In this document: positions 3,482 to 58,221 of the stretch, one piece after another | Position numbering within the stretch: the first letter of the stretch is position 1 | Layout: each line of letters begins with the position of its first letter | IMG/VR virus record: IMGVR_UViG_3300020577_010124 | Location: 1-64,000 of that record | Direction: 5' to 3' (one strand) | From: a virus | Lineage: Duplodnaviria > Caudoviricetes | Length of the DNA stretch: 64,000 bases | Made by a program: the position numbers and the translations under genes | Notes under the pieces: model-generated | The model's database searches: none | The model's input: the letters and a program-made list of their open reading frames with translations, nothing else | Told to the model about the DNA's origin: nothing

Positions 3482-4384
3482 ATGGCATTTGTAAAGTCAA
3501 ACAACAACGAGCAGCAAGAGATGGTAATTGCTCAAGCGCTCGAAACTGACGAGGGCCGTACAGCACTCGCTCAGGCAATGGTCGAGCCAATCCGTCGCTC
3601 GCTCGAATATCAGGCTGTCGGTCGTAAGCTTCTAATGGTTGATGAGTTGCCTCAGGGCGCTCTTGCTCGTTACGAGCGCGACGTTGCGGCAATCGCATTC
3701 GTCGTCTCCCGTAGAGGCGCAGTACCTGACCAGATCCAAGAAGGCGATGAGATTCTCGTCCCAACTTGGGAGATCGCTGCTAACCCAACGATCCGTCTTA
3801 GCGAAATCAAGGCTCGTCGTTTCTACATCGTAGACCGCGCCCAGATCAAGGCTAAGGAAGCTATACAGAAGGAAGAGGACGAGCAGATTTTCTCTGCCCT
3901 AATCCAAGCCGCTGTACAGCGCGGTGATCAGAAGGTCACCGTCTCTGGTGGTGCGCTAACCCCAGCAAGTCTTAACACTGCATTCCGCGAAATTGAGCAG
4001 CACGATCTCGTCTGCACCAAGGTCGTAATGCATGCTAACCGCTATGCTGACGTTCGCTTCTTCAACGGCGGTGGTGGTTCTACTAACACTACTCGCTTCT
4101 ACGACGAAGCAACTACGAGAGAGATTCTTACAACTGGTCTTTACGGCCACTTGTGGACGGCTGACCTCCACGTAAGCTCTCGTATGGACCCTCAGTACGT
4201 TCTATGCGTTGCATCTCCTGATACAGTAGGTGCATTCCCAATCCGTCAGGACATCACTGTTCTACCAGCAGATGATCCTAAGAAACTACGTCTCGGTTGG
4301 GTTATCTACGAGGAAGTCGGCGTTGCCGTTATCAACGACTACGCAGTAAGCCTCATCCAAGTCTCTGGCGTTGGTACTACCTAA
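3482..4384 (+). CDS. Major capsid protein, HK97/encapsulin-like fold
   Basis: 300 aa, strong RBS (AAGGAG), biased codon usage, followed by a terminator. Pattern ALAQAMVEPIRRSL..RKLLMVDELPQGA..YERD..KEED..GWVIYEEVG is typical of large-phage MCPs. Confidence 0.85.
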   Translation: MAFVKSNNNEQQEMVIAQALETDEGRTALAQAMVEPIRRSLEYQAVGRKLLMVDELPQGALARYERDVAAIAFVVSRRGAVPDQIQEGDEILVPTWEIAANPTIRLSEIKARRFYIVDRAQIKAKEAIQKEEDEQIFSALIQAAVQRGDQKVTVSGGALTPASLNTAFREIEQHDLVCTKVVMHANRYADVRFFNGGGGSTNTTRFYDEATTREILTTGLYGHLWTADLHVSSRMDPQYVLCVASPDTVGAFPIRQDITVLPADDPKKLRLGWVIYEEVGVAVINDYAVSLIQVSGVGTT

Positions 4385-4472: not shown

Positions 4473-4546
4473 TGCGGAGTAGAGAAGTGGTCATCTCGCT
4501 AGCCTCATAAGCTGGAAATCGTGTGTTCGAATCACACCTCTCGCTA
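4473..4546 (+). tRNA. tRNA with CAT anticodon (Met, initiator-like features)
   Basis: Cloverleaf: D stem GAGA/TCTC, anticodon stem CTAGC/GCTGG with loop CTCATAA, T arm GTGTG-TTCGAAT-CACAC. Acceptor stem has one extra base; no encoded CCA. Confidence 0.9.
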
Positions 4547-4557
4547 CTAATACCCCT

Positions 4558-4609
4558 CCAAGGAGCGATCCTTGGCTCGACGCTCGCAGCAATGCGGGCG
4601 TTTATTTTT
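4558..4609 (+). terminator. Tandem GNRA hairpins / terminator after tRNA
   Basis: ccaagga-GCGA-tccttgg, then cgctcgca-GCAA-tgcgggcg-tttattttt. Confidence 0.7.
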
Positions 4610-4624
4610 GTCGATATTCAATTC

Positions 4625-6025
4625 ATGAAGTTTATCAACAAAACGAAGAACACAGTACAACTTGACGATATCAACCTTTCAATATCATATAACGATGGAT
4701 TGCCTCAAGAAATAGACACGCAATCAGTAAAGAAGAGTTTTGCTTTTCAAAACATGATATCTTTAGGCGGTTTCGAGGTTATTGAAGCCTCTGACGACCG
4801 ACTTGAAAAAAACTTATTCAAAACTAGTAAGAAGTACGAAAAGCCAGAAAAAGTTGAAATTAAAAGATTTGATAGTAGTGCGAACATAGAAACGATTGTT
4901 AGGGGTCATTTTTATGAATCTAGCGGCTATGCTAAGGTCAATCGTAATCTTGTTCTAAATCTTGCAAGACAGGGTATAGGAGTAGAAATAGATCCTATTT
5001 CAATGCGACACAACGATTTGAATGAAGTTGAAGCTCGCATGTTGTCTATGTTCAGAAAACCTATGGGAAAAGACGCTATACTTATTGATAGCGTTATTCC
5101 AACTCATTGCCAAGCAAATAGCCAGCCATACAAGATACTCTATACAACAGCAGAATCGGTTGAAGTTCCTAGACAGTTTATAGACTCAGCTAATCAATAC
5201 GACGAGCTATGGGTAACAAGTAGCTTTTCCAAGCAAGCATATGAAAGAAGCGGTTATGTAGGCAAAATATATTTAATGCCACCCATTATAAATAAATTCT
5301 TGTACAAGGAGCAAGTTGCGCCTTATGAGTTCCGTCCAAAGCTCTCTGGATTTGTCTTTACAAGCGTCATGACATGGGGATACAGAAAAGGCTCAGATGC
5401 CCTAATTAAAGCCTTTTCCAGAGCATTTTCAGACTCTGACGACGTAAGCCTTGTTCTGCTGGTTGCGGAGAGATCCAAAGCCAAGAGAGAGGCTATCAAA
5501 AAAGAAATTAATTACCTAACAAATTATAAATTATCTACACACAAAATTTTATTGTGCCATAAAAACGTTCCTGAATATCAGATGCCGTCCTTCTACAAGG
5601 CTTCCAATGTATTCGTTCTTCCTTCAAGGGGAGAGGGTTTTGGTATCCCGTTCTGCGAAGCTTCTCTTTGCGGTCTTCCAGTTATATCAACTCGGTATGG
5701 CGGGCAGATGGATTTTTTGAATGACGAAAACTCAACCTTGGTTGATATTGACACGATAGAGCGACCTAAAGACGGAGAGACAGGAATTCATTATTGGGAC
5801 AATCAGCCATTTCCTAGTTTGAAATCCGATAAGTTCATAGATAACCTGGCTGAATCCATGATTTTTGCGCGGAAAAACTACGAACTTATAAAGAGCAAAA
5901 ACGTTTTGCTTCAAAATGCTATAACTAGTCGCTTTAGCGGAGAGGTTGTAGGGAAGACGGCTAAGAGCATACTGGACATAGCTTGGAAAGGAATAAAAAA
6001 TGATAGTGTTTCTAAATCCAACTGA
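4625..6025 (+). CDS. GT-B glycosyltransferase (GT4-like) with extra N-terminal domain
   Basis: SGYAKVNR, DELWVTS, RKGSD, FVLPSRGEGFGIPFCEASLCGLPVIST motifs. Start moved to ATG 4625 because the ORF-track start overlaps the tRNA. Confidence 0.85.
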   Translation: MKFINKTKNTVQLDDINLSISYNDGLPQEIDTQSVKKSFAFQNMISLGGFEVIEASDDRLEKNLFKTSKKYEKPEKVEIKRFDSSANIETIVRGHFYESSGYAKVNRNLVLNLARQGIGVEIDPISMRHNDLNEVEARMLSMFRKPMGKDAILIDSVIPTHCQANSQPYKILYTTAESVEVPRQFIDSANQYDELWVTSSFSKQAYERSGYVGKIYLMPPIINKFLYKEQVAPYEFRPKLSGFVFTSVMTWGYRKGSDALIKAFSRAFSDSDDVSLVLLVAERSKAKREAIKKEINYLTNYKLSTHKILLCHKNVPEYQMPSFYKASNVFVLPSRGEGFGIPFCEASLCGLPVISTRYGGQMDFLNDENSTLVDIDTIERPKDGETGIHYWDNQPFPSLKSDKFIDNLAESMIFARKNYELIKSKNVLLQNAITSRFSGEVVGKTAKSILDIAWKGIKNDSVSKSN

Positions 6026-6608
6026 TAGAACAATAACAATTTGCGATAAAATCGTAACAGTATATTCTTGGTCGCAAACGAAAACTCTCAAATCTATTCT
6101 AAGCGGTAACAATGTAATTTATGTTACTGACGCTGTTGAGACTTCAGGAGAAGAGGTTCTGCAAGTCATACAAGAATCAATGACAGAAGACGACCTAGGC
6201 GATCAGACTATAGTAGCAAATGAACAGTTGTATTTTCATACAACTCAAAGCGGAGCAATGATGGTATCATATGCTAATAAGGTATATACCTTCAAGGGAG
6301 CGGGAGATTTAAGAAAGATACAAGACCTTCCAGAAGGCCTACTAGAAAACTGCTCATATGTTGTTGACGGAATGAAGAGCGGTTTGTTTGAGATCGTTGG
6401 AGAAGAAGAAAAGAATCAAATTCTAGAAGAAGTAAACGCAAAGAAGACAGATTTTCATAACAAGAAGAACAACATTCTTGTTGATAGCGGCGTTTCTGCT
6501 TCTGACGCAGCAGAAGGTAAGAAAGGTAAGTTTAGCGCTAAGGGTAGTGTTGACGACCCAATTGAGATTGATCTATCTCCTGGCGCTGGCTTCAAAAAAG
6601 GTTACTAA
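6000..6608 (+). CDS. Hypothetical protein (shares small domain with the 4625 and 50229 proteins)
   Basis: 202-aa ORF with RBS, overlapping the upstream stop. Confidence 0.6.
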   Translation: MIVFLNPTDRTITICDKIVTVYSWSQTKTLKSILSGNNVIYVTDAVETSGEEVLQVIQESMTEDDLGDQTIVANEQLYFHTTQSGAMMVSYANKVYTFKGAGDLRKIQDLPEGLLENCSYVVDGMKSGLFEIVGEEEKNQILEEVNAKKTDFHNKKNNILVDSGVSASDAAEGKKGKFSAKGSVDDPIEIDLSPGAGFKKGY

Positions 6609-45610: not shown

Positions 45611-46426
45611 ATGGCAAGAAAATCAAAGCACAAGAAGGTCAACGATAGTTTTGTTATGGCCGAAAATAGCACTTCTAAATTGTTAGTTGCTGTCAGTGCA
45701 AGAAATGCTGGGCAGAAAAAAGCTCTTAAAGCTATTGCAGACAATCAAGTAACATTTCTATATGGAGCGCCAGGTACTGGCAAGACCCATTGTGCCGTAG
45801 GTTATGGTATTCAAGAAATGCTCAAGGGAACTTATGAGCGAGTCATTTTTACTAGACCCTATGTTGAAGCTGGTGAAAAGCTTGGATTTTTGCCAGGCGG
45901 ATTTGATAGTAAGTTTGCCCCTTTCGTTATGCCTCTATATGAAGTTGTTTCTGATTATCTTAGTCAAGATGAAATCAAAGCCATGATCGAAGATAAGCGA
46001 ATCATTGTCTATCCTCTTGCATATATGAGAGGAGCTACATTCAAAAAATCATTTATTGTTGCTGACGAAGTTCAGAACTCTACAATGCAACAGATGCGAA
46101 TGATGCTTACTCGTATCGGAGAAGGTACGAAGATTGTTTGCACGGGCGACGTAGAGCAGTCCGACCTTGGTTCAAGAGTAAATGGTTTGGCAGACGCTAT
46201 TGAGCGACTTCCTGGCGTTGAAAATCTAGAGTTTGTTGAGCTTGGTTATGATTCTTGCGTAAGAGAGAAGATTGTTTCTGATATTGACCGTAGATACAAG
46301 TCTAAGCCATTCCTTAGCGCTGACGATTTGGCTAAGATACAAGAAGAAAATCTTAAGAATAATGGTAAATATAGGTCTAATGCAGAAGAAGCTCTCGGAG
46401 ATAATGAGGGAGACGACTCAAACTGA
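45611..46426 (+). CDS. phoH: PhoH-family ATPase
   Basis: GAPGTGKT, RPYVEAGEKLGFLPG, LAYMRGATF, DEVQN, GDVEQSDL. Confidence 0.97.
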   Translation: MARKSKHKKVNDSFVMAENSTSKLLVAVSARNAGQKKALKAIADNQVTFLYGAPGTGKTHCAVGYGIQEMLKGTYERVIFTRPYVEAGEKLGFLPGGFDSKFAPFVMPLYEVVSDYLSQDEIKAMIEDKRIIVYPLAYMRGATFKKSFIVADEVQNSTMQQMRMMLTRIGEGTKIVCTGDVEQSDLGSRVNGLADAIERLPGVENLEFVELGYDSCVREKIVSDIDRRYKSKPFLSADDLAKIQEENLKNNGKYRSNAEEALGDNEGDDSN

Positions 46427-46521
46427 CGATTTAAGAAAAGGCGCATTAGCCTCTCATTCCTGCAAGTCTTGAAGGAGTGAGAGCTTTTGCGTTGGAAGAG
46501 GTAGATAAGGAGAACAAGGGA

Positions 46522-49500
46522 ATGAAGGTTACTGACTTTTTCAAGCGAATCAAGGCCAGCCTATTTACGGAGGCTCAACTTCGTCGTTTTATCAACGACG
46601 ATATTCCTCTTAATCCAAAAGAGCCTTTTCCTGCAAAAACGCCGCCTGTTGTAAAAAAGCCAGCCCCTAAAGCTGTTGTTCCTTTTGCTCCAACTCCATA
46701 TGAGCCTATGCCTGCTCCTGCTAATAAACCAGCAGTCATGCCAAGTCCTCAAGTTGCTCCAATTTCGCAACCTCAACAAAGCCAACCAACAGAACAAGAG
46801 CTAACTCCTCGCCAACAACAGTTTGCGACTCTGTTGCAACGACTTTATGATAAAGAACTAAATAACGAACTCAATGGCCTTGATCCTATTGAAAAGGCTG
46901 AGTTTGATTATGACAACTTTAATCGCTCTTTCAAATCTAATGTTCTTCGAAAACTTCCGCCAGAAAACAGAGAAGACATGGTTGTTGCGATGGATGTCTT
47001 TTTGCAAAAACTCAACAAAGACCAAGGCGGTTTTAGTAAAAATGAAATCATGAGTCTTTTGAGAGACGGATATACAAATATTCTAAACTCTACAAAGCCA
47101 ACAAAAGACGGATCGCCTGATATCAAAAGCGTTCACAATAAGTTCTTGCGAGAGTTTGGAACGCAACCAACTTTCAAGCCGTATATACGAGAGTTTCTAG
47201 AGAATATTGCTAAAGAACAGATGCCAGGAGAATCTTCTCCTATTATGCGTCAAGTTGCTGTTCCTAATAAGTTCCCAGATCTAAGCGAACAAGTTGTTCG
47301 TGGTCTTATTTATTTTGAAGGCGCAGAGAAACTTCGAACATGGCCGCATTTCTTGCAAAATGAAAACAACGAGAAAATGCTCGACCGTATTGTTGAAGAT
47401 ATTGTCAAATCCGCCAACATCAATCGAGAGCAGCTTTCTACCAACTTCCTTCAATCGTATCTTGGCTTGGGCGGCGGTCAGTCTAATAACTCTCAGGCTA
47501 ACCTTCGACGCTTCTATCAGCTATTTATTGACAATAATCTGAAGGACAAGAATATTGATCCAGTAGAGATTCAGAGACGGCTCAACACCGTTGACCCTAA
47601 CTCTCCAAATCAGAGACTGGCTGTACATGATATTATCAAGTTTGTTAATAGCACTCTATTCATGCCCGACAAGTATGGCAAAGAATATATTGTCAAGTAT
47701 ATGCTTTCCAGAAAACCTGGCGAGCTACGAAAAATCCTTAAGCAAAATGGCGCAACTCCAGAAGATATCGCTTCTATTATGACGGTACAAGGGGAAGAAG
47801 GTCAAGAGCAGGTCCAGATACGCAAAGACCAAGGTATCAATACAAGCAGAAATCAACAAGTTGTTCGTCCATATTTGAAGCCAATCTCAGAATATATTGA
47901 TACTCTCATAACTTCTCAAGATGAAGACTTCTTTGATTGGTGTGCAACAGAAGCCTATCGAGATTATGGTAGAGGTATGCAATCTATAACCAGAAACGCT
48001 CCAAGAACTAAGGGAGAAAATGGCGAGGATATTGCCTACGACTTTGCAGACGAAGATCAGCATGGTTTTGGAGATGATTCTGATGATGTTGACAATGATA
48101 GAGACGAGTTTGCAGAACAAAACAGTCTTGGCGAAGACGAGGGCGAAGAAGACGTTAAGAGAGTTATGTCTAATGAAGGTCTTCCTGCCGAGGAAGTTGT
48201 TCCAGACGAAAATGCAACAGTTAAGCCAGAACAACTAACAAGTTTCTTTGACAACTACAAGAAGATTAGAGCTTTGTATGGCGATATAGCAACTGCTATG
48301 GACCGACAGTATTTGTCTTCTTTATCTAAGATGTCTGCTGCTCCTCAAGCAAAAACTGACGAGGAAGGCGGAGAGGAAGAGGGCGGCGGTAGTGTTTCTA
48401 GAGAATCATTGTTGACCATTCTGCAAAAGCAGGCACTATACAAAATGCTTTTCAGTCTTTCGGACAAGCGCATGGCTGATTTTTTCGGAACGTCACACAA
48501 TGGTATTCCTGTTACGGATACTCGTCTTCTTTCTATTATCAATCAAGATTGGAATGAACTAGTTAGACCATATGACTTGGCAAAAGAATTAGATCTAACC
48601 ATGAACAATCCGATCATCGCTCAAACTGTACAGAGAGCTTTGAATGACGGTTTAGGATTGGCTGGCGGCAAGACGCAAAGCAATACTCCCGAAGGAATGT
48701 ATCGAGCGATATTTGGAGATCCAGGCAAGCAAGACGCTGCTAATCTAACAGTCAGAATGTGGATTCGTTTGAATAACTTTGAAAACTTGTTATTGAGTCC
48801 TGAGATTGCGGGTAAACATGGAAAAGAAGCTTTGGTTTCTTTCCTTGATATGGTTGGTATGGACAAGAGAGTTATTCGCTTGGGTTCTTTGCTTTCTAAG
48901 AGTAATGCTGCTGGTATAAATGACAAGATTGAATACTTGACCGAACTTGTTAGAAGAGGTTCTATAACCGATTTTACCGAGGACCAAATAGAGAACATGA
49001 GCATAGACGAGCTTTCGTCTGTGTTTGGTCGTGTACGTAGAGAACTAGAAGGTTTCTATGGAAACTCGGCGATGAAGCGTCAGGCTATTATGGATAGTCC
49101 TACGATTACAGATCAAGATATTGCAGAAGTCGGAGCTTCGCTAGGAATACGATCTAAGAAAGATTTCCAGAATGCTCCAACTGCTAAAGCAAATGCTGTT
49201 ATCAAAGGCATATATACTTCTGACCGATACGAAAAAATCAAGATGCAAACAGAAGAAGACGAAAGCCTTCGTACATATTTGAAAAACGGAATTAAGAAGA
49301 GAAGTGAAACGGACGAGGCTATTCTTCCTAAGCTTGGACTAGATACTTACTTGGATATTGATAATCTACCAGGACGTAGAGTTCAGCAGATAGCTCAAGT
49401 CTACTATCCTGACGTTTATCAAGCTTTTAGAGCAGGGAAGCTCAAGTCCGTTGGAGAGAGCGCAAAGCCTCTAGAGAATACGTTTAAGAAGACACTTTCA

Positions 49501-50034
49501 AGCTATGTATCTGCTAATCCAAAACTACTTCAAGTATTGGGCTATCCTTCTATGGACGAGTTCAATGATTTCTTGAAGAAGTCAACGGGAGACGATCTAT
49601 CAAAGCCAATGGAGAAGATTTTGTCTCGTAGCGGCGAGCTTGAACAAATGAAGCCAGGCCCATTGCGAGAGGTTATGAATACTTACAACAGATACTTGTC
49701 TGTTAGAGACTTCTCGCAGAATCCTGACCAAGCAAGACTTGGCGTTGCTTTGAAGCATCATATCCACAACAACTTGATAAAGCCTGACGAAACAAAGGGT
49801 TCGGTTCCTACAGGAATGTTGAATCAAGCTCTTGTCTTTGCTAAGATTCTTGATCTTCCAAAGAAGCAAGTTGCGGCCAAACTCAGAATGCTTAGTTTGA
49901 AAAAGATTGCATCACAAAAGCGCTATAATGCTCTCGTTCAATTGAGGTACCGATTTGCTCAGCGTAGTGTCGATACAACTATGCTAGACCAACTGATAGC
50001 GAAAGTGCTTGAAGATGCCAGAAGATTCGACTAA
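46522..50034 (+). CDS. Large helical hypothetical protein, possible internal head protein
   Basis: About 1170 aa from ATG 46522 (RBS AAGGAG); Pro-rich N-region, acidic tracts, KxA motifs near both ends. Confidence 0.5.
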   Translation: MKVTDFFKRIKASLFTEAQLRRFINDDIPLNPKEPFPAKTPPVVKKPAPKAVVPFAPTPYEPMPAPANKPAVMPSPQVAPISQPQQSQPTEQELTPRQQQFATLLQRLYDKELNNELNGLDPIEKAEFDYDNFNRSFKSNVLRKLPPENREDMVVAMDVFLQKLNKDQGGFSKNEIMSLLRDGYTNILNSTKPTKDGSPDIKSVHNKFLREFGTQPTFKPYIREFLENIAKEQMPGESSPIMRQVAVPNKFPDLSEQVVRGLIYFEGAEKLRTWPHFLQNENNEKMLDRIVEDIVKSANINREQLSTNFLQSYLGLGGGQSNNSQANLRRFYQLFIDNNLKDKNIDPVEIQRRLNTVDPNSPNQRLAVHDIIKFVNSTLFMPDKYGKEYIVKYMLSRKPGELRKILKQNGATPEDIASIMTVQGEEGQEQVQIRKDQGINTSRNQQVVRPYLKPISEYIDTLITSQDEDFFDWCATEAYRDYGRGMQSITRNAPRTKGENGEDIAYDFADEDQHGFGDDSDDVDNDRDEFAEQNSLGEDEGEEDVKRVMSNEGLPAEEVVPDENATVKPEQLTSFFDNYKKIRALYGDIATAMDRQYLSSLSKMSAAPQAKTDEEGGEEEGGGSVSRESLLTILQKQALYKMLFSLSDKRMADFFGTSHNGIPVTDTRLLSIINQDWNELVRPYDLAKELDLTMNNPIIAQTVQRALNDGLGLAGGKTQSNTPEGMYRAIFGDPGKQDAANLTVRMWIRLNNFENLLLSPEIAGKHGKEALVSFLDMVGMDKRVIRLGSLLSKSNAAGINDKIEYLTELVRRGSITDFTEDQIENMSIDELSSVFGRVRRELEGFYGNSAMKRQAIMDSPTITDQDIAEVGASLGIRSKKDFQNAPTAKANAVIKGIYTSDRYEKIKMQTEEDESLRTYLKNGIKKRSETDEAILPKLGLDTYLDIDNLPGRRVQQIAQVYYPDVYQAFRAGKLKSVGESAKPLENTFKKTLSSYVSANPKLLQVLGYPSMDEFNDFLKKSTGDDLSKPMEKILSRSGELEQMKPGPLREVMNTYNRYLSVRDFSQNPDQARLGVALKHHIHNNLIKPDETKGSVPTGMLNQALVFAKILDLPKKQVAAKLRMLSLKKIASQKRYNALVQLRYRFAQRSVDTTMLDQLIAKVLEDARRFD

Positions 50035-50227
50035 GACAGAAGAGGCTCCGATACCTAGATTTGTGTTTGTCTGCGCCTTTTGCAGATCCCATGATAGCTC
50101 TCCGTCTATTGAGTTCAACTTTGGCGATGCCAAGGTTTATAGCTATTGCAAATCATGCAAGAAGATGAATGAGATGGACTTCTCAAAGACGATGCCTTCT
50201 TCATATCCAAAACCAAGGCGAATATGA
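50015..50227 (+). CDS. Small zinc-ribbon protein
   Basis: CAFC...CKSC. Confidence 0.6.
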   Translation: MPEDSTKTEEAPIPRFVFVCAFCRSHDSSPSIEFNFGDAKVYSYCKSCKKMNEMDFSKTMPSSYPKPRRI

Positions 50228-50228
50228 G

Positions 50229-50822
50229 ATGTACATAATCAAAAATATATCAGCAAGCGAAGTAACACTAAATGATCTTCATATTATGCTTGGCAAGGGC
50301 GAGCAGGTAGATGTTGATATGGTTTGCTCTCGTTATATAGCTGAGCAATCCGCCATTCTCAAACAAAACATAAGATCAGGCGCTTTGAGAGTTATAATGA
50401 AGGACGACCATAGAGGTACGGTCCAGATCAAAACCGCAGAATACGCTCCTCCGCCTCCTCCAATGGTTCATAAGCAAGATAACAGCGATGTTATTGACGC
50501 GGTAAAGCAGCTTGAAGCAAAGCTTGAAAAACGATTGGAAGAGAAAGTTACGGCTGCTCAACAGCAACAGCCTCAAATAGACCCAGCTTTACTTTCTCAA
50601 GCGCTTGCAGCTATTCAAGGCCTTGTCAATCAAGCAGGAAAGGCTGTTCCTTCTAAGGAAGAAAACCCCTCGGAAGAGGTTAGCGAGAGAGTTGTAGACA
50701 TACATAAAAGAACCTTGGACAGATTGGCAGGAAATGCTCAAAGTAATGTAAAACATACAGAGCAAATATCCGATAATAGTAGTGTACAAAAGAATATTGA
50801 CGAACTCGAAGGACTGCTGTGA
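50229..50822 (+). CDS. Coiled-coil protein, candidate actin partner
   Basis: N-terminal shared small domain, polyPro linker, coiled coil, amphipathic C-terminal helix (NIDELEGLL). Confidence 0.55.
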   Translation: MYIIKNISASEVTLNDLHIMLGKGEQVDVDMVCSRYIAEQSAILKQNIRSGALRVIMKDDHRGTVQIKTAEYAPPPPPMVHKQDNSDVIDAVKQLEAKLEKRLEEKVTAAQQQQPQIDPALLSQALAAIQGLVNQAGKAVPSKEENPSEEVSERVVDIHKRTLDRLAGNAQSNVKHTEQISDNSSVQKNIDELEGLL

Positions 50823-51643
50823 AAGACGAAGAAATTTACAAACAATTAGAAGAACTATGCAAAGATCGAATAACCATAATATCTCATTGTGGATACGATA
50901 AGGAAGGCCAATTTATTAGTTGGTCTGATCTATTTAATCATTCGGTTTTTGACGGCATGATGCTTTCTGATGGATATATAGAAAAAAGATCCGAATCTAG
51001 TTCTGCAAGATTTAGATTATCTTGTAAATATGAAGAATTTGCTCGATGCTTTGCGAATTATACAGGAATAGGTAAGAATATAAATTTAGCATCACATAGT
51101 TACTCTGATAAGAGAACAAATAAAACATATACTGGATATCGTTTAGATTCTAAATCAAATTATGAATTTGTTTTGCAACATACTCGATGGTACCCGAATG
51201 GAAAGAAAATTGTGCCGAGAGACATAATTTTGGATAGAACTACGTTATTATGGTGGTATCTTGGCGACGGTCATTTGAATAAAAAGAAGGCTAGACCAAA
51301 TTATAGACGAGTTGTATTATCTACTCAAGGATTTGTTAATGAAGATATTGATTTTCTAAAATCTAAAGTTGTCGAAAAATTTGGCGAAGATTCTGTCTAC
51401 ATAGAAAACCGAAATATAATCATTGGAAGAAAAGCTCTTTGTAAATTCGCAAAAGAAATGGGCAACAAAAGTCCAGTAAATTGCTACCAGTACAAGTTTG
51501 ATTTTGGGCCATATGTTGATGAAAACTATTGGGAAAAGAGTTTTGAGGATAGACCGCTGAAGTACATAAATGAATACAGACGAAAGAATAAAGTTAGAGA
51601 GTTAAAGTATACAGAGAAAAGGGAGATTAGTCATGATAAGTAG
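50819..51643 (+). mobile_element. Free-standing LAGLIDADG homing endonuclease
   Basis: Two motifs FDGMMLSDGYI and LLWWYLGDGHL, WYPNGKKIVP, LSTQGF; more AT-rich than its neighbours; overlaps both flanking genes. Confidence 0.85.
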
Positions 51644-52706
51644 AGTGGTAGGAGCCGACATCGGCACGATGTTTTTTCAGGTTGCCGAGATGGAGAATGG
51701 TAACTTAAAAGTAAAGAACACAAGAAATGCTTTTGTCGAGCTTCCAAAGACAGACGACGTTGAAGATACCCTTCAGCGAAACAACTGGCAATATATCAAA
51801 GACGGAGATAGCTATTTCGTAGTCGGAGAGGACTGCGTAAAGGTTGCCAATATTTTTCCAGGCAAAGTTGAAATTCGTCGGCCAATGGCTGACGGAGTTT
51901 TGAACAAGAATGAAGATAAGAAGCTTATTGTTCTTGCTGAACTTGTAAAAGCTTCTATTGGGCAAGCTCCCGACGACAACTCATGGGTATGTACATGCGT
52001 TAGCTCTGATTCGGTAGACGGATCGGCTGATTCTACATTCCATAGAAATCGAGTTATGGCGTTGTTCACTCGTCTTGGCTGGAAGGTCAAGGTTATTGAA
52101 GAGGCTCATGCTGTTATTCTAAGCGAAAGGCCAACGATTGTTGAGGAAGACGGAACGATTGTTCCTTACTCTGGCATCGGTGTAAGTTTTGGCGCTGGAC
52201 GAGCCAACTGCTTGCTGGCCTATAAGGGCTTGCCTGTTATTGGAATGAGCGTTGCTCGAAGCGGCGATTGGATTGATAAGCAAGTCTTTGAGCAGACAGG
52301 AGTTGCTATATCGCAAATCATCTCTGCCAAGGAAAGAAAGCTTGATTTTGACGCTCTAGACGATAGCGACGACGTAGTTTTTGCTCTTAATGCATACTAT
52401 GACGCAATGATTGAATATGTCTTCAAACATTTCGGTAAAAAGTTCCAAGAAGTAAAGAGTCAGTTTAACCAACCCCTTGATATTGTAGTCGCTGGCGGAA
52501 CCTCGATGCCTAAAGGTTTTTGTCAGAAACTAGAGAAAATAGTAATGGGTCTTAATCTGCCTTTCAAAGTCAAGGAAGTCAGACACGCAAAAAGTCCAAG
52601 GAATGCCGTAGTTGAAGGTTTGCTAGCTCAAGCAATGATAACTCAAAAGAAAGAGTCGCAGAACCTTCCGCAAGCTCAAGACCCAATTGATAAACTCTTG
52701 ACTTGA
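51633..52706 (+). CDS. Actin-like ATPase (volactin-like clade)
   Basis: GADIGT (phosphate 1), IEEAHAV (connect 1), SFGAG (phosphate 2), GDWID, AGGTS (adenosine), RRPMADGVL. Confidence 0.85.
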   Translation: MISRVVGADIGTMFFQVAEMENGNLKVKNTRNAFVELPKTDDVEDTLQRNNWQYIKDGDSYFVVGEDCVKVANIFPGKVEIRRPMADGVLNKNEDKKLIVLAELVKASIGQAPDDNSWVCTCVSSDSVDGSADSTFHRNRVMALFTRLGWKVKVIEEAHAVILSERPTIVEEDGTIVPYSGIGVSFGAGRANCLLAYKGLPVIGMSVARSGDWIDKQVFEQTGVAISQIISAKERKLDFDALDDSDDVVFALNAYYDAMIEYVFKHFGKKFQEVKSQFNQPLDIVVAGGTSMPKGFCQKLEKIVMGLNLPFKVKEVRHAKSPRNAVVEGLLAQAMITQKKESQNLPQAQDPIDKLLT

Positions 52707-52718
52707 CGAGAAAGCTAA

Positions 52719-53447
52719 ATGGGATATGCAACTCCACAACAAGTATACGACATCATAGCTCAGTCTCTTACCAGTGCAACTAATAGAGTCGTAAACGGGC
52801 AGCCTGTCCCCCTTGTAAATTTCGGTAGAGCCAAAGATAGCAACACTATCCCTGATAGCGTTGTCTATCAGGCTATAAGCTGGGCAAGCGACCAAATCGA
52901 CGCTGGCATAAGCGAGCTATACGTTACTCCGTTGTGCGAAAAGACAGATCTTGAAATAAGACTTCTTGCTGACATCGATCCTTATAATGACGCAATCAAT
53001 GTTACTAAGGCTACAGTCCTAAATCCTGGCGATACTTTGGTATTTATTGATTCCTTGGGAGAAGAGCGTCATATTGTCAGCGCTGTTACCGACGCAAATA
53101 CCATTGAGCTAGCCGAACCAATCTTGGGTATCTACCATAAAGAAACAACGAGGATCTTGCGAGTAAAGTTTCCTCCAAGTGTAAATCTGATGTGCGCTAG
53201 ACTTGCCGCGGCAAATCTCTACGATAAGTATTTTTCTGCGCAAGCAAATCCAGATAAGACTGAATACGGCAAGACTCTTAGAGGTTGGGCTTTGTCAGAT
53301 CTCAATTCTGTTATCAATGGTATCATTATTCTCAACGGTCAGAAGAGAATAGGGCGTAGATTCTACAATCCAAATCTTAGCGATCGTTATGGCCTACCTC
53401 CATTGGATAAGGACTTCAACATCAAGATGGACGGAGGAGATAGATGA
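52719..53447 (+). CDS. Head-tail adaptor (Mu gp36/DUF1320-like) with inserted domain
   Basis: MGYAT..AISWASDQIDA..Y.TPL..PPSVNLMCARLAAANLY..ALSDL. Confidence 0.7.
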   Translation: MGYATPQQVYDIIAQSLTSATNRVVNGQPVPLVNFGRAKDSNTIPDSVVYQAISWASDQIDAGISELYVTPLCEKTDLEIRLLADIDPYNDAINVTKATVLNPGDTLVFIDSLGEERHIVSAVTDANTIELAEPILGIYHKETTRILRVKFPPSVNLMCARLAAANLYDKYFSAQANPDKTEYGKTLRGWALSDLNSVINGIIILNGQKRIGRRFYNPNLSDRYGLPPLDKDFNIKMDGGDR

Positions 53448-53683
53448 AAAACGATCTCTCTAAGTTTATTGGAGCTATAGACCAAGTGGCTCGGTTGAAC
53501 GGCAAGGAAATACGAGACAATATTTTTTCGCAAAAGACTGTGATTAGCAAAACTCCCGAAGAGGCCATGAAGAGAGCAGCCTACGAGGACTATCTTAAGA
53601 CAGGAAAGGCTCATTCGGTTGAGCATGCAAGAGAGATATGCGACGAGTTTATTAGAGACGTTTTGAAGAAGGCAACTGAATGA
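53444..53683 (+). CDS. Hypothetical protein
   Basis: 79 aa, RBS GGAGG, ATGA overlaps at both ends. Confidence 0.6.
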   Translation: MKNDLSKFIGAIDQVARLNGKEIRDNIFSQKTVISKTPEEAMKRAAYEDYLKTGKAHSVEHAREICDEFIRDVLKKATE

Positions 53684-54585
53684 TTGACATACTTGAAAGC
53701 GTAAGAAGAACGGTTTACCGTTGGGTCAATACGACTGTCCCTCTAACGACAGACGCAGCCTTTGGCGGTACTACGCTCAAAGTAACTTCTTCTAATCGCT
53801 TTCGAGTTGGCGACGAGGTTGCTTTGCATGACGGAGTAAATGGAGAGCCAGGCCTTCGTATCGCAGAGATTCCAGATCGTAATACAATCATACTAGAAAG
53901 TCCTATCAAGACGATTGCGGGTTGGAGATCTACCGCAAACGGAATGCTTACCAAGACCTATGACGGTCAGTTTATTCAAGCTATCTACATTGGCGAGCCA
54001 GACGTTATTCCAGCCTATCCAGCTATTACTATCATGGGGCAGAAGAGAACGTCCGAATGGTTTACTCTTGAAACTACCAAAGAGAGATACAGCCTACAGA
54101 TTGTTATTTATGCGCACAACGATAATCATGAAGCTGCCTACAGAATGGTTTCGCAAATCGCTAATATCATTCAGCTTGGCTTGAAAAAGAACGTTTTCCC
54201 TCTTGTTGGTCCATATGAAACGGTAAACGTTATTGCCGACGTAAACGGCGGAGACGAGTTTATCAAGGTGGCTGACTCTTCTAAGTTCCAATGCGAGAAC
54301 AAGATTCTTCTTGAGAACCGCTATCGAGCAGAAGAGCTTCGAGTAGCAGAAATTGTTGATCCAACGACTATTCGAGTTTGGCCTAATCCATACAATGACT
54401 TTCTTGTAAGCGAGCAGACTAAGGCGATTATCCTAAGTCGCTTTATCTACAATTCTTGGCCTAGCGATATTGATTACGGATTCAAGTACAAAGGTACATT
54501 GCTTCATGCAGCAAGCATTTCTTGGTTCGCGGAAGAACAGGAAATACAGACTCGTCATGGATGGTCGGACCCTCAACTCTCATAA
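53680..54585 (+). CDS. Putative tail terminator/completion protein with two inserted domains
   Basis: IYIGEPDVIPAYPAITI..YSLQIVIY..IDYG..LHAASISW; position between adaptor and tube. Confidence 0.6.
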   Translation: MIDILESVRRTVYRWVNTTVPLTTDAAFGGTTLKVTSSNRFRVGDEVALHDGVNGEPGLRIAEIPDRNTIILESPIKTIAGWRSTANGMLTKTYDGQFIQAIYIGEPDVIPAYPAITIMGQKRTSEWFTLETTKERYSLQIVIYAHNDNHEAAYRMVSQIANIIQLGLKKNVFPLVGPYETVNVIADVNGGDEFIKVADSSKFQCENKILLENRYRAEELRVAEIVDPTTIRVWPNPYNDFLVSEQTKAIILSRFIYNSWPSDIDYGFKYKGTLLHAASISWFAEEQEIQTRHGWSDPQLS

Positions 54586-57117: not shown

Positions 57118-57157
57118 TGTCTATTTCGCTTACTGTTTATAGGAGTTTAAGGTAATA

Positions 57158-58221
57158 TGCCTATTCCAACCGCATCAATGGGCTTTATGGGTTCCGTCCG
57201 TTTTAACGGCGGTACTATAGGCCAGGAAATTCTCGTAAGAGCCTTATCTTGCGATATTAGAGCAAAGCAAGATATTGATTATCCAGACGTTGTTGATAGT
57301 CGTATTGACAATACTCTATATCAAATTAAGCCAAGAATCGTTGAAGGCAACTGCGAACTCCCCCTCGTTCATGAAGGCATCGCCACTGGAACAAGCAAGG
57401 CTTGCAACCCAGCAAATAATCTAGCTAAGAGACTTTGGGAAATTGCGGCAAAGAGAGATCAAACAGGTAGACTTGTAAATCAATTCAACGTTGACGTTCG
57501 TTATACAGACAATACAGCGTACAGATATCCAAATTGCATCATAAACTCAATGAAGGTCAGCATTACCCAATCTGACTTCGTTAAGATCAACTTCAATGTT
57601 ATGGGTGGAGCTAACGTCACCGACAGCGTTCGAGAGGCCTTGACAACTGACCGCGACCCAACTTTCCTAGCACCTGCTCGTATCGTTACATGGAATGACT
57701 TTAGAATAAACGTTTTCATTCAAGAAGCGGGAATTACCCTTCCAGGTTCATATATACGTTCCTTTGATGTTGAACTTAACAACAATGCAGATCGTTTCTA
57801 TACCTTGAACGGCAAACTAGTTCCACAGGATATTACTGCTCGTAAGAGAACCATATCGGGCAACCTTGCTCTTATGGGTTTCTCTGCTAAGCAGTTCCAC
57901 GATTTCATTTATAACAATCAGTCCCGCTATACTTCTCAATCTAAGATTGCATTTGGTTATACGCTTGGAAGCGCTACCATCCCATATTGGGCTACGGCGC
58001 TTTGGGGCGTTATCTTCCAAATCGAGGAAGTCCAAATTGGTAACGATATAATCGAAACCAGAATACCATTTAGAGCGCTTGGAGACTGCGAGAACGATTA
58101 CGAAGCAATCTCACTCGGAGCGGACAACCAGAGCGTAGATACTGCCCCAACCAACGGTTCGTTTGGCGGTCCTACTGCTCCAACTTACTTCCGCCCACTT
58201 ACATCTTTCAATCCGCTATAA
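57158..58221 (+). CDS. Tail tube protein (two-domain type)
   Basis: Two similar halves (SCDIRAKQ..RIVEGN / SFDVELNNN..RKRTISGN); upstream of chaperones and tape measure; followed by a hairpin. Confidence 0.75.

Follow-up and report, generated by a model that had tools for sequence, protein, structure and literature searches.

The cytoskeletons known from phages are the tubulin PhuZ, which occurs in nucleus-forming jumbo phages, and, in prophages and plasmid-like phages, a few actins of the ParM/Alp type; in the ParM system ParR docks on ParM through its C-terminal tail. PhuZ is a phage-encoded polymer that has been proposed to serve large-phage reproduction and capsid traffic (PMC8314001, PMC9067925). 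The volactin family is represented in Haloferax volcanii by VolA (HVO_2015), which forms dynamic filaments in vivo with tips touching the membrane, and the study describing it lists the volactin binding partner as unknown (PMC10869688). In the literature we searched we found no account of volactin filaments built by phages, and the word “actin” is absent from the text of a 2026 jumbo-phage review.

The DNA analysed here (the window, 64 kb) forms the first part of a 170-kb IMG/VR record with an estimated completeness of 34%, and its source is a fragment of an uncultured phage with a genome of roughly 500 kb. The capsid protein of the record (3482-4384) has its closest cultured relative in that of Bacillus phage G (52% identity), a phage in which no volactin was found, and this capsid type therefore does not require volactin. 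The window carries a gene for a volactin-family protein, volA, in a cassette whose genes abut or overlap each other and the neck genes with almost no intergenic DNA (Table 1). The open reading frames for the Zn-ribbon protein, the partner, the endonuclease and the actin were all re-found where the original prediction had put them, and its claim of a phage-encoded actin among neck genes is borne out by the phage neighbours and by synteny in related contigs. Only 13 nt separate the volA stop codon from the start of the next gene, an order that is syntenic in 17/17 contigs. The product of this next gene matches Phage_Mu_Gp36 weakly (E 5.5e-4, Pfam), as it does the head-tail adaptor family phrog_195 (E 6e-4, PHROGs), and neither it nor the neck protein encoded at 53680-54585 had a match among GenBank phages. 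Because all genes in the window lie on one strand, the position in a neck operon says little about the timing of expression.

Table 1 Features of the volA cassette and of the glycosyltransferase gene next to the capsid gene.
Feature	Position	Strand	Basis
Small Zn-ribbon protein	50009..50227	+	Two CxxC pairs, weak Zn_ribbon_Elf1 match
Partner protein, 197 aa	50229..50822	+	In 17/17 related contigs, AF2 model, hhalign
Free-standing LAGLIDADG homing endonuclease, mobile insert	50819..51643	+	PF03161, phrog_11023
volA, volactin-family actin-fold ATPase, 357 aa	51633..52706	+	PF25216 full length, AF2 model, Foldseek
Head-tail adaptor-like neck protein	52719..53447	+	Weak Phage_Mu_Gp36 and phrog_195 matches
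GT4 glycosyltransferase adjoining capsid gene	4523..6025	+	GT domain by Pfam

The volA product matches the Pfam family Volactin (PF25216) with E 1.9e-62 (212.1 bits, cut-off 35) over profile positions 3-321 of 321, with the same outcome in a six-frame search of the DNA, whereas the match to MreB_Mbl (PF06723) is partial and its 21.2 bits fall under the cut-off of 27; the resemblance to volactin rather than MreB, originally put forward from motifs, is thus clear. The H. volcanii protein belongs to the same Pfam family, and phage VolA is about 31% identical to haloarchaeal members. No Pfam match to StbA/ParM, Hsp70 or sugar kinases was obtained at E 0.01, and VolA, the partner and the Zn-ribbon protein all lacked a family in PHROGs. 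The AF2 model of VolA (pLDDT 95.5, pTM 0.92) contains all four actin subdomains, and the top 50 Foldseek matches are all MreB, MamK, BeeR, actin or Arp (E 1e-15 to 1e-12 for MreB, MamK and actin), with neither Hsp70 nor sugar kinases among them. MamK and MreB are the nearest solved structures by both profile and fold (TM 0.62-0.72), the profile search of PDB sequences giving MamK (5LJW) at 1.3e-13, then MreB at 4e-9, then FtsA, with EutJ also matched. Judged from sequence and model, it is confirmed that VolA is a true volactin-family actin and groups with neither Hsp70 nor sugar kinases.

Every actin-fold motif listed in the original prediction is found in the translation, namely DIGTM, RNAFVE, VVGED..ANIF..E.RRPM..GVL, GVSFGAGRANCLLAY, ARSGDWID and VAGGTSMPKGF, and the residues D9, G11, T12, E157, G187, G189 and G288-G289-T290 show no or almost no variation among 61 VolA homologues. 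The phosphate-2 motif of VolA, GVSFGAGRAN, belongs to a type, S-F-G-A-G-x-x-N, that we derived as family-typical from the homologues and that is present in most of 150 representatives. The Asp that other actins, MamK and MreB included, have in phosphate-2 is Ser in VolA (SFGAG), which is true of the whole family including the archaeal members; H. volcanii volactin has a SFGAGM-type motif, and the pattern [GA][ILF]SFGAGM[VT] picked up haloarchaeal, Archaeoglobaceae and Planctomycetota members. Nor do the surroundings resemble those of MreB or MamK: the neighbours of volA are phage genes, with no MreC/MreD/RodZ or magnetosome genes nearby.

A maximum likelihood tree of 96 rows, obtained with a quick search and with E. 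coli MreB and FtsA as an outgroup on a long branch, separates the volactin family, VolA included, from MreB and FtsA with 99% SH-aLRT, as the original prediction would have it. The window's clade falls inside a 41-row clade (97%) that also contains the haloarchaeal clade. VolA groups with Planctomycetota, its closest cellular relatives, and not with archaea, and the archaeal clade is nested within viral diversity. The actin-like protein of 'Ca. Uab amorphum' was considered as a relative and rejected, being a different, eukaryote-like actin. At least 529 IMG/VR stretches encode a VolA relative, but tblastn of VolA against 50,697 GenBank phage records gave only two matches, both in uncultured phages.

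The block of Zn-ribbon, coiled-coil partner, volactin and head-tail adaptor genes is kept in all 17 related viral contigs, in which volA, with 54-88% identity against 40-79% for the neighbouring structural genes, is better conserved than the rest of the block, showing at the level of sequence comparison that it is under strong purifying selection. Homing endonucleases and inteins target the volactin gene. The LAGLIDADG gene in the window (PF03161, E 6e-18; phrog_11023, E 2e-20) is present in five of the contigs (L002, L003, L005, L006 and L014), and in the other 12 about 15-30 nt separate partner and actin; setting it aside, as was done originally, was right, since it is a mobile insert and no part of the system. 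The proposed Zn-ribbon protein is likewise supported: read as 72 aa from TTG 50009 or as 70 aa from ATG 50015, in a gene overlapping the end of a 1185-aa gene, it has four Cys in two CxxC pairs kept in 17/17 contigs and a weak match to Zn_ribbon_Elf1 (E 0.004). It is weakly similar to a Zn_ribbon_8 gene of another phage lineage (hhalign E 0.008), and its linkage to the cassette is confined to the window's clade.

In the AF2 model of the partner a folded N-domain (residues 1-60, pLDDT 94-98) is followed by a disordered linker rich in Pro, by two helices (85-112, 119-136) and by a helix at the C terminus (184-196, ending NIDELEGLL), which agrees with the predicted layout of a coiled-coil protein with a polyPro linker and a tail. 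As modelled, the N-domain has five strands, with three short helices between the fourth and the fifth, an arrangement other than ribbon-helix-helix. The domain had no match among solved structures by Foldseek or VIA-align: with the whole partner model, Foldseek gave no match at E 0.001 (best, the prophage protein YqbF, E 0.65) and VIA-align matched only generic coiled coils to residues 82-144, with Z below 5.

The linkage between actin and partner extends far beyond the window's clade. In another phage lineage the gene that precedes volactin encodes a homologue of the N-domain (hhalign probability 93.8%, E 1.8e-7), a relation seen only with the N-domain profile and hhalign: the full-length partner profile had no match in LR745208, LR756511, phage G or the rest of the 170-kb record, and BLASTP of the partner against the LR745208 neighbour gave none. 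Of 75 viral loci, 57 have the N-domain in a gene upstream of volactin, and in 44 that gene is at position -1. The pair of partner and actin is also found in cellular Planctomycetota, beside ExbB/ExbD and a TPR protein, with a partner that is 26% identical to ours (E 6e-6). Because this setting is non-viral, the partner is not specific to capsids and does not in itself imply a capsid cargo. A similar helix, first acidic and then hydrophobic, closes the product of the upstream gene in G-like phages, other phages, Planctomycetota, haloarchaea and Archaeoglobaceae, with tails in other lineages ending ...ALKALRKKK, ...ADLLSNL or ...LLDRVATLLGRN, and this short helix is likely an actin-docking tail. 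H. volcanii volactin also follows a partner gene ending in a short C-terminal helix, but the haloarchaeal partner is a membrane protein of about 300 aa, unlike the soluble phage partner with its new N-domain and coiled coil.

A weak likeness to the partner N-domain is seen in the N-terminal extension (residues 36-93) of the GT4 glycosyltransferase encoded next to the capsid gene. The N-domain profile matched this protein by hmmsearch with E 0.012, hhalign of the domain against the segment gave E 0.0065 with 55 in-register columns, and a structure search of the Atlas with the N-domain ranked a viral GT4 cluster second, with a low TM. A domain shared with the protein at 6000-6608 is not supported (hhalign E 0.22).

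We propose that the cassette encodes a two-part cytoskeletal module, a VolA filament and the 197-aa adaptor, with a role in organising virion assembly, a reading to which we give a probability of about 0.55. VolA would bind and hydrolyse ATP and polymerise into dynamic filaments in the infected cell, as judged from its family membership, since the H. volcanii member forms such filaments in vivo. The partner would be the VolA adaptor, at least dimeric through its coiled coil, with helix 184-196 docking on the actin in the manner of the ParR tail on ParM and the folded N-domain holding a cargo or a site. The module would be made together with the late virion genes, and we think it probable that, late in infection, these phages assemble actin filaments of their own. 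In two unrelated phage lineages the cassette directly precedes the neck genes, which suggests a role in arranging virion assembly in space, as does the possible N-domain copy on the glycosyltransferase adjoining the capsid gene; in the other lineage the gene after volactin resembles the Gp37 and SP10 tail terminators (Atlas score 0.91), which we note as a lead only. A phage of about 500 kb has a large cell to fill, in which the filament could place or move capsids or the sites of assembly; positioning of capsids is plausible, and any specific cargo is speculative. PhuZ offers a parallel as a phage-made polymer, but it belongs to the tubulin superfamily and VolA is an actin; a search of the 170-kb record for tubulin genes found none, and there is no evidence of a phage nucleus for the present phage.

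An unlikely alternative is that the filament pushes or positions phage genomes, either replicating DNA or a plasmid-like carrier state, with the partner binding the DNA as an adaptor of the ParR or AlpA kind. Type II partition systems and AlpC/AlpA of Corynebacterium prophage CGP3 (PMC4446434) do share the layout, in which a mobile element carries a gene for an actin-like ATPase together with one for a small adaptor that docks on the filament; moreover, an N-terminal HTH of the ParB type is present in some members of the volactin family (P0178), and the Lys/Arg-rich partner tails of the other phage lineage could bind DNA. The tail in the window's clade is acidic, however, the partner N-domain is modelled as something other than the ribbon-helix-helix of such adaptors, and the adaptor gene lies upstream of the actin gene. 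The compactness of the cassette leaves hardly any room for a centromere, and between 45400 and 53600 we found no iteron- or centromere-like array, only two-copy repeats at chance level. No sequence relation to AlpC or ParM showed in the PHROG and StbA searches, and the cassette sits among structural rather than replication genes of a huge lytic-type phage.

We consider it quite improbable that the phage actin instead alters the shape, size or division of the host cell and so makes room for very large virions. A phage of this genome size needs a large cell, volactin and MreB shape cells, the rod-to-disk transition being under the control of volactin in the archaeon (PMC10869688), and the Planctomycetota relatives keep the pair in chromosomal settings. 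Takeover genes, however, are usually early and away from structural genes, while this cassette overlaps neck genes in two lineages, and the partner in the window's clade lacks the membrane segment that the archaeal upstream protein has; a cell-shape role of the H. volcanii kind is not expected.

Closteroviruses use an Hsp70 homologue in virion assembly, and a gene between head and neck genes in two lineages, with its unusual SFGAG phosphate-2 motif, could by analogy encode a non-filamentous assembly chaperone for neck or tail, but this is very unlikely given that sequence and fold place VolA with the filament formers MamK, MreB and actin and find no Hsp70 likeness, that its 357 aa include no substrate-binding domain, and that filaments are known from the archaeal member, whose motif is the same.

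Returning to the module of VolA filament and adaptor, an extended reading would be a widespread phage assembly-line cytoskeleton with swappable adaptors that share one docking tail and differ in their heads (a soluble N-domain or a membrane anchor), the capsids and their modifying enzymes, such as the glycosyltransferase tagged with the N-domain, being gathered on the filament. We regard this extended reading as unlikely. As its corollary, the archaeal cell-shape volactin may have descended from, or been exchanged with, a viral pool, since the tree places archaeal members inside the diversity of the viral ones.

Volactin, whose description as a protein of archaeal cell shape dates only from 2024, is common in uncultured phages, where its gene combines very strong constraint with a modular partner and a position at the boundary of head and neck genes. 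If filaments and docking are confirmed, very large phages would have a second, actin-based route for organising the infected cell, and the volactin family would gain a defined binding partner.

VolA, the 357-aa actin-fold protein of the window, belongs to the volactin family. It covers the whole Pfam Volactin profile (PF25216, cut-off 35 bits) with an E-value of 1.9e-62 and 212 bits, whereas MreB_Mbl reached only 21 bits, under its cut-off of 27. This bears out the original prediction, which had preferred volactin over MreB from a list of sequence motifs, every one of which was found in the translation. The AlphaFold model of VolA is very confident (pLDDT 95.5, pTM 0.92) and its 50 best Foldseek matches were all MreB, MamK, BeeR, actin or Arp chains; Hsp70 and sugar kinases, a grouping with which was to count against the prediction, did not occur among these 50. 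When solved structures were ranked by a VolA profile built from 61 homologues, MamK came first (E 1.3e-13), followed by MreB (4e-9), FtsA and EutJ.

The residues D9, G11, T12, E157, G187, G189 and G288-G289-T290 of VolA vary little or not at all. At phosphate-2 the motif is S-F-G-A-G-x-x-N in place of the D-x-G-G-G-T-T of other actins, a family-wide trait of volactins that the haloarchaeal members retrieved by pattern have too. A family member from Haloferax volcanii builds dynamic filaments in vivo (PMC10869688), so the substitution does not speak against polymerisation.

A maximum-likelihood tree of 96 rows, taken from a quick search and given MreB and FtsA as outgroup, set the volactin family cleanly apart from both at 99%, in line with the predicted affinity. 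The window's clade (100%) is joined by one viral contig and a Planctomycetota clade (99%); the 41-row clade (97%) around them also takes in the archaeal clade, which sits among viral lineages. With this outgroup the basal branches are viral volactins, and the nested archaeal clade is haloarchaeal and Archaeoglobaceae. The topology hints at virus-archaea exchange of volactin, but the long outgroup branch leaves the position of the root uncertain.

The family is widespread: a word-indexed search gave 862 relatives, an exhaustive search 810 clusters at 50% identity (202 of them at or below 1e-30), a pattern scan of IMG/VR at least 529 stretches encoding relatives, and a species-genome scan 296 relatives in Halobacteria, Archaeoglobaceae, Thermoplasmatota and Planctomycetota. 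Among GenBank phages only 2 of 50,697 records match the window's VolA, both from uncultured huge phages, and there is no PHROG family for it. Some homologues have further architectures: P0178 bears a ParB-type HTH ahead of its volactin domain, P0209 joins the domain to a Wzz/GNVR/ParA-like tyrosine-kinase module (1160 aa), and P0136 consists of two volactin domains in tandem (729 aa). The literature mentioning volactin concerns archaea or consists of general reviews, the word phage appearing only in a Haloferax study; searches combining actin with huge-phage or jumbo-phage topics gave nothing on the family, and the word actin is absent from a 2026 jumbo-phage review.

The window makes up the opening 64 kb of an IMG/VR virus record of 170,562 bp, estimated to be 34% complete, which implies a genome of roughly 500 kb. 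Its major capsid protein shares 52% identity with gp27 of Bacillus phage G. No volactin-family gene was found in phage G and the neck proteins adjoining VolA had no match among GenBank phages; the likeness to G is confined to the head. No tubulin gene was found in the 170 kb of the record.

Features of the window around VolA, with identities over the 17 related viral contigs
Feature	Position	Strand	Identity to window	Matches and remarks
Major capsid protein	3482-4384			phrog_2522 E 3e-65
PhoH	45611-46426			uninterrupted
1185-aa protein	46477-50034			Pro-rich and acidic low-complexity stretches; no Pfam or PHROG match
Zn-ribbon protein, 72 aa from 50009 (TTG)	50009 or 50015 (ATG) to 50227	+	34-68%	
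Partner, 197 aa	50229-50822	+	21-57%	
LAGLIDADG endonuclease, 274 aa	50819-51643	+		PF03161 E 6e-18; phrog_11023 E 2e-20
VolA, 357 aa	51633-52706	+	54-88%	
Adaptor-like protein, 242 aa	52719-53447		40-71%	13 nt past VolA; weak Mu Gp36 and head-tail adaptor matches
301-aa neck protein	53680-54585		41-79%	
Siphovirus-type tail tube	57157-58221			Phage_tube_2

The four ORFs between 50009 and 52706 abut or overlap one another, and the Zn-ribbon gene overlaps the end of the 1185-aa gene. The predicted conservation of this neighbourhood was found in all 17 related contigs (up to 498 kb), which preserve the order PhoH, large variable protein, Zn-ribbon, partner, VolA, adaptor, further neck genes, GT4 and tube, with VolA the most conserved gene in each. 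In close relatives with a VolA identity of 79-88%, the 1185-aa protein reaches only 24-32%; it evolves fast but holds a conserved position. The profile of the 301-aa neck protein also matches residues 49-149 of the adaptor-like protein (E 2.3e-5), and the two neck genes therefore have a homologous segment in common. In contig L018 (IMGVR_UViG_3300045125_000158) the match to each block gene is broken into two or three shifted segments, which looks like indel-rich assembly error and not gene decay. The phoH genes of four other contigs (L007, 1125-2939; L008-L010, 2150-3967) match as two separate segments (residues 1-60 and 26-257) with some 950 nt between them, suggesting an intron, intein or endonuclease insertion.

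The LAGLIDADG endonuclease is present in 5 of the 17 contigs, and a gap of a few tens of bases separates partner and VolA in the 12 without it; this marks it as a free-standing homing endonuclease that invaded the junction, and the original prediction rightly set it aside. Homing endonucleases and inteins are usually found in phage genes of high conservation, and inteins with LAGLIDADG or HNH domains split many more distant VolA homologues near the phosphate-2 region.

In the AlphaFold model of the partner, residues 1-60 (the N-domain) are well predicted (pLDDT 94-98) as four short strands, three short helices and a fifth strand. Next come a Pro-rich disordered linker, three helices (85-112, 119-136, 158-168) and, at the C-terminus, a helix at 184-196. 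Its conserved parts are the N-domain and the last nine residues, NIDELEGLL. Around distant viral volactins (70 loci, mostly of a second phage lineage) a module recurs, with proteins of ~460, ~183 and ~228 aa, volactin, a ~375-aa protein, a Zn_ribbon_8 protein and a ~1400-aa protein; locus L055 (3356-12973), L093, L061, L042 and about 50 further viral loci carry it. No Pfam or PHROG family covers its large proteins, and some loci hold a ferritin/Dps-like gene between partner and volactin (L093, 5303-5947). Over the N-domain, the partner of the window is a homologue of the ~228-aa family (hhalign probability 93.8%, E 1.8e-7), and none of the other module neighbours is related to the window's neck genes. 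A gene matching the N-domain profile lies upstream of volactin in 57 of 75 viral loci, directly adjacent in 44, and downstream in none, so that the predicted linkage extends beyond the window's clade. Partner and actin are therefore the one linkage surviving between two differing phage contexts. The gene after volactin in the second lineage resembles Gp37/SP10 tail-terminator proteins (language-model features, 0.91, a lead only), and the pair again stands directly before neck genes.

Remodelling of host shape by VolA is possible, although it fits less well with the late-gene setting and a soluble partner. ParMRC-like positioning of DNA by VolA and the partner, for which the ParB-type HTH fusions of some family members speak, is weakened by the setting of the cassette among structural genes, by a partner N-domain model that does not look like ribbon-helix-helix and by the lack of any repeat array found. 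The neighbours of VolA in fold and sequence speak against a non-filamentous chaperone.

The pairing of volactin with an upstream partner also occurs in cells. In one Planctomycetota locus, a cellular setting, ExbB and ExbD lie close by, volactin comes after a 202-aa protein that shares 26% identity with the partner of the window (E 6e-6), and genes for a TPR and a DUF2071 protein follow. The N-domain was not found in Haloarchaea and Archaeoglobaceae, where the upstream gene encodes a membrane protein of about 250-300 aa. In every group the upstream protein has a similar C-terminus, in which a short amphipathic helix comes after acidic residues: ...NIDELEGLL in the window's clade, ...DVMDKADLLSNL in Planctomycetota, ...LDDAASALKALRKKK in other phages, ...VLGSLLDRVATLLGRN in haloarchaea and ...DILEVTKALKSIEG... 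in Archaeoglobaceae. From these endings we infer a putative common actin-docking tail on interchangeable heads.

The only hint at a cargo, a weak one, comes from the GT4 glycosyltransferase beside the capsid gene, residues 36-93 of which align in register with the N-domain (hmmsearch E 0.012, hhalign E 0.0065, and a low-TM Atlas structural neighbour). A third N-domain copy, in the 6000-6608 protein, was not supported. The N-domain in cellular Planctomycetota partners argues against a capsid-specific reading. If the likeness to GT4 is real, the N-domain would be a targeting domain in common, possibly for the capsid.
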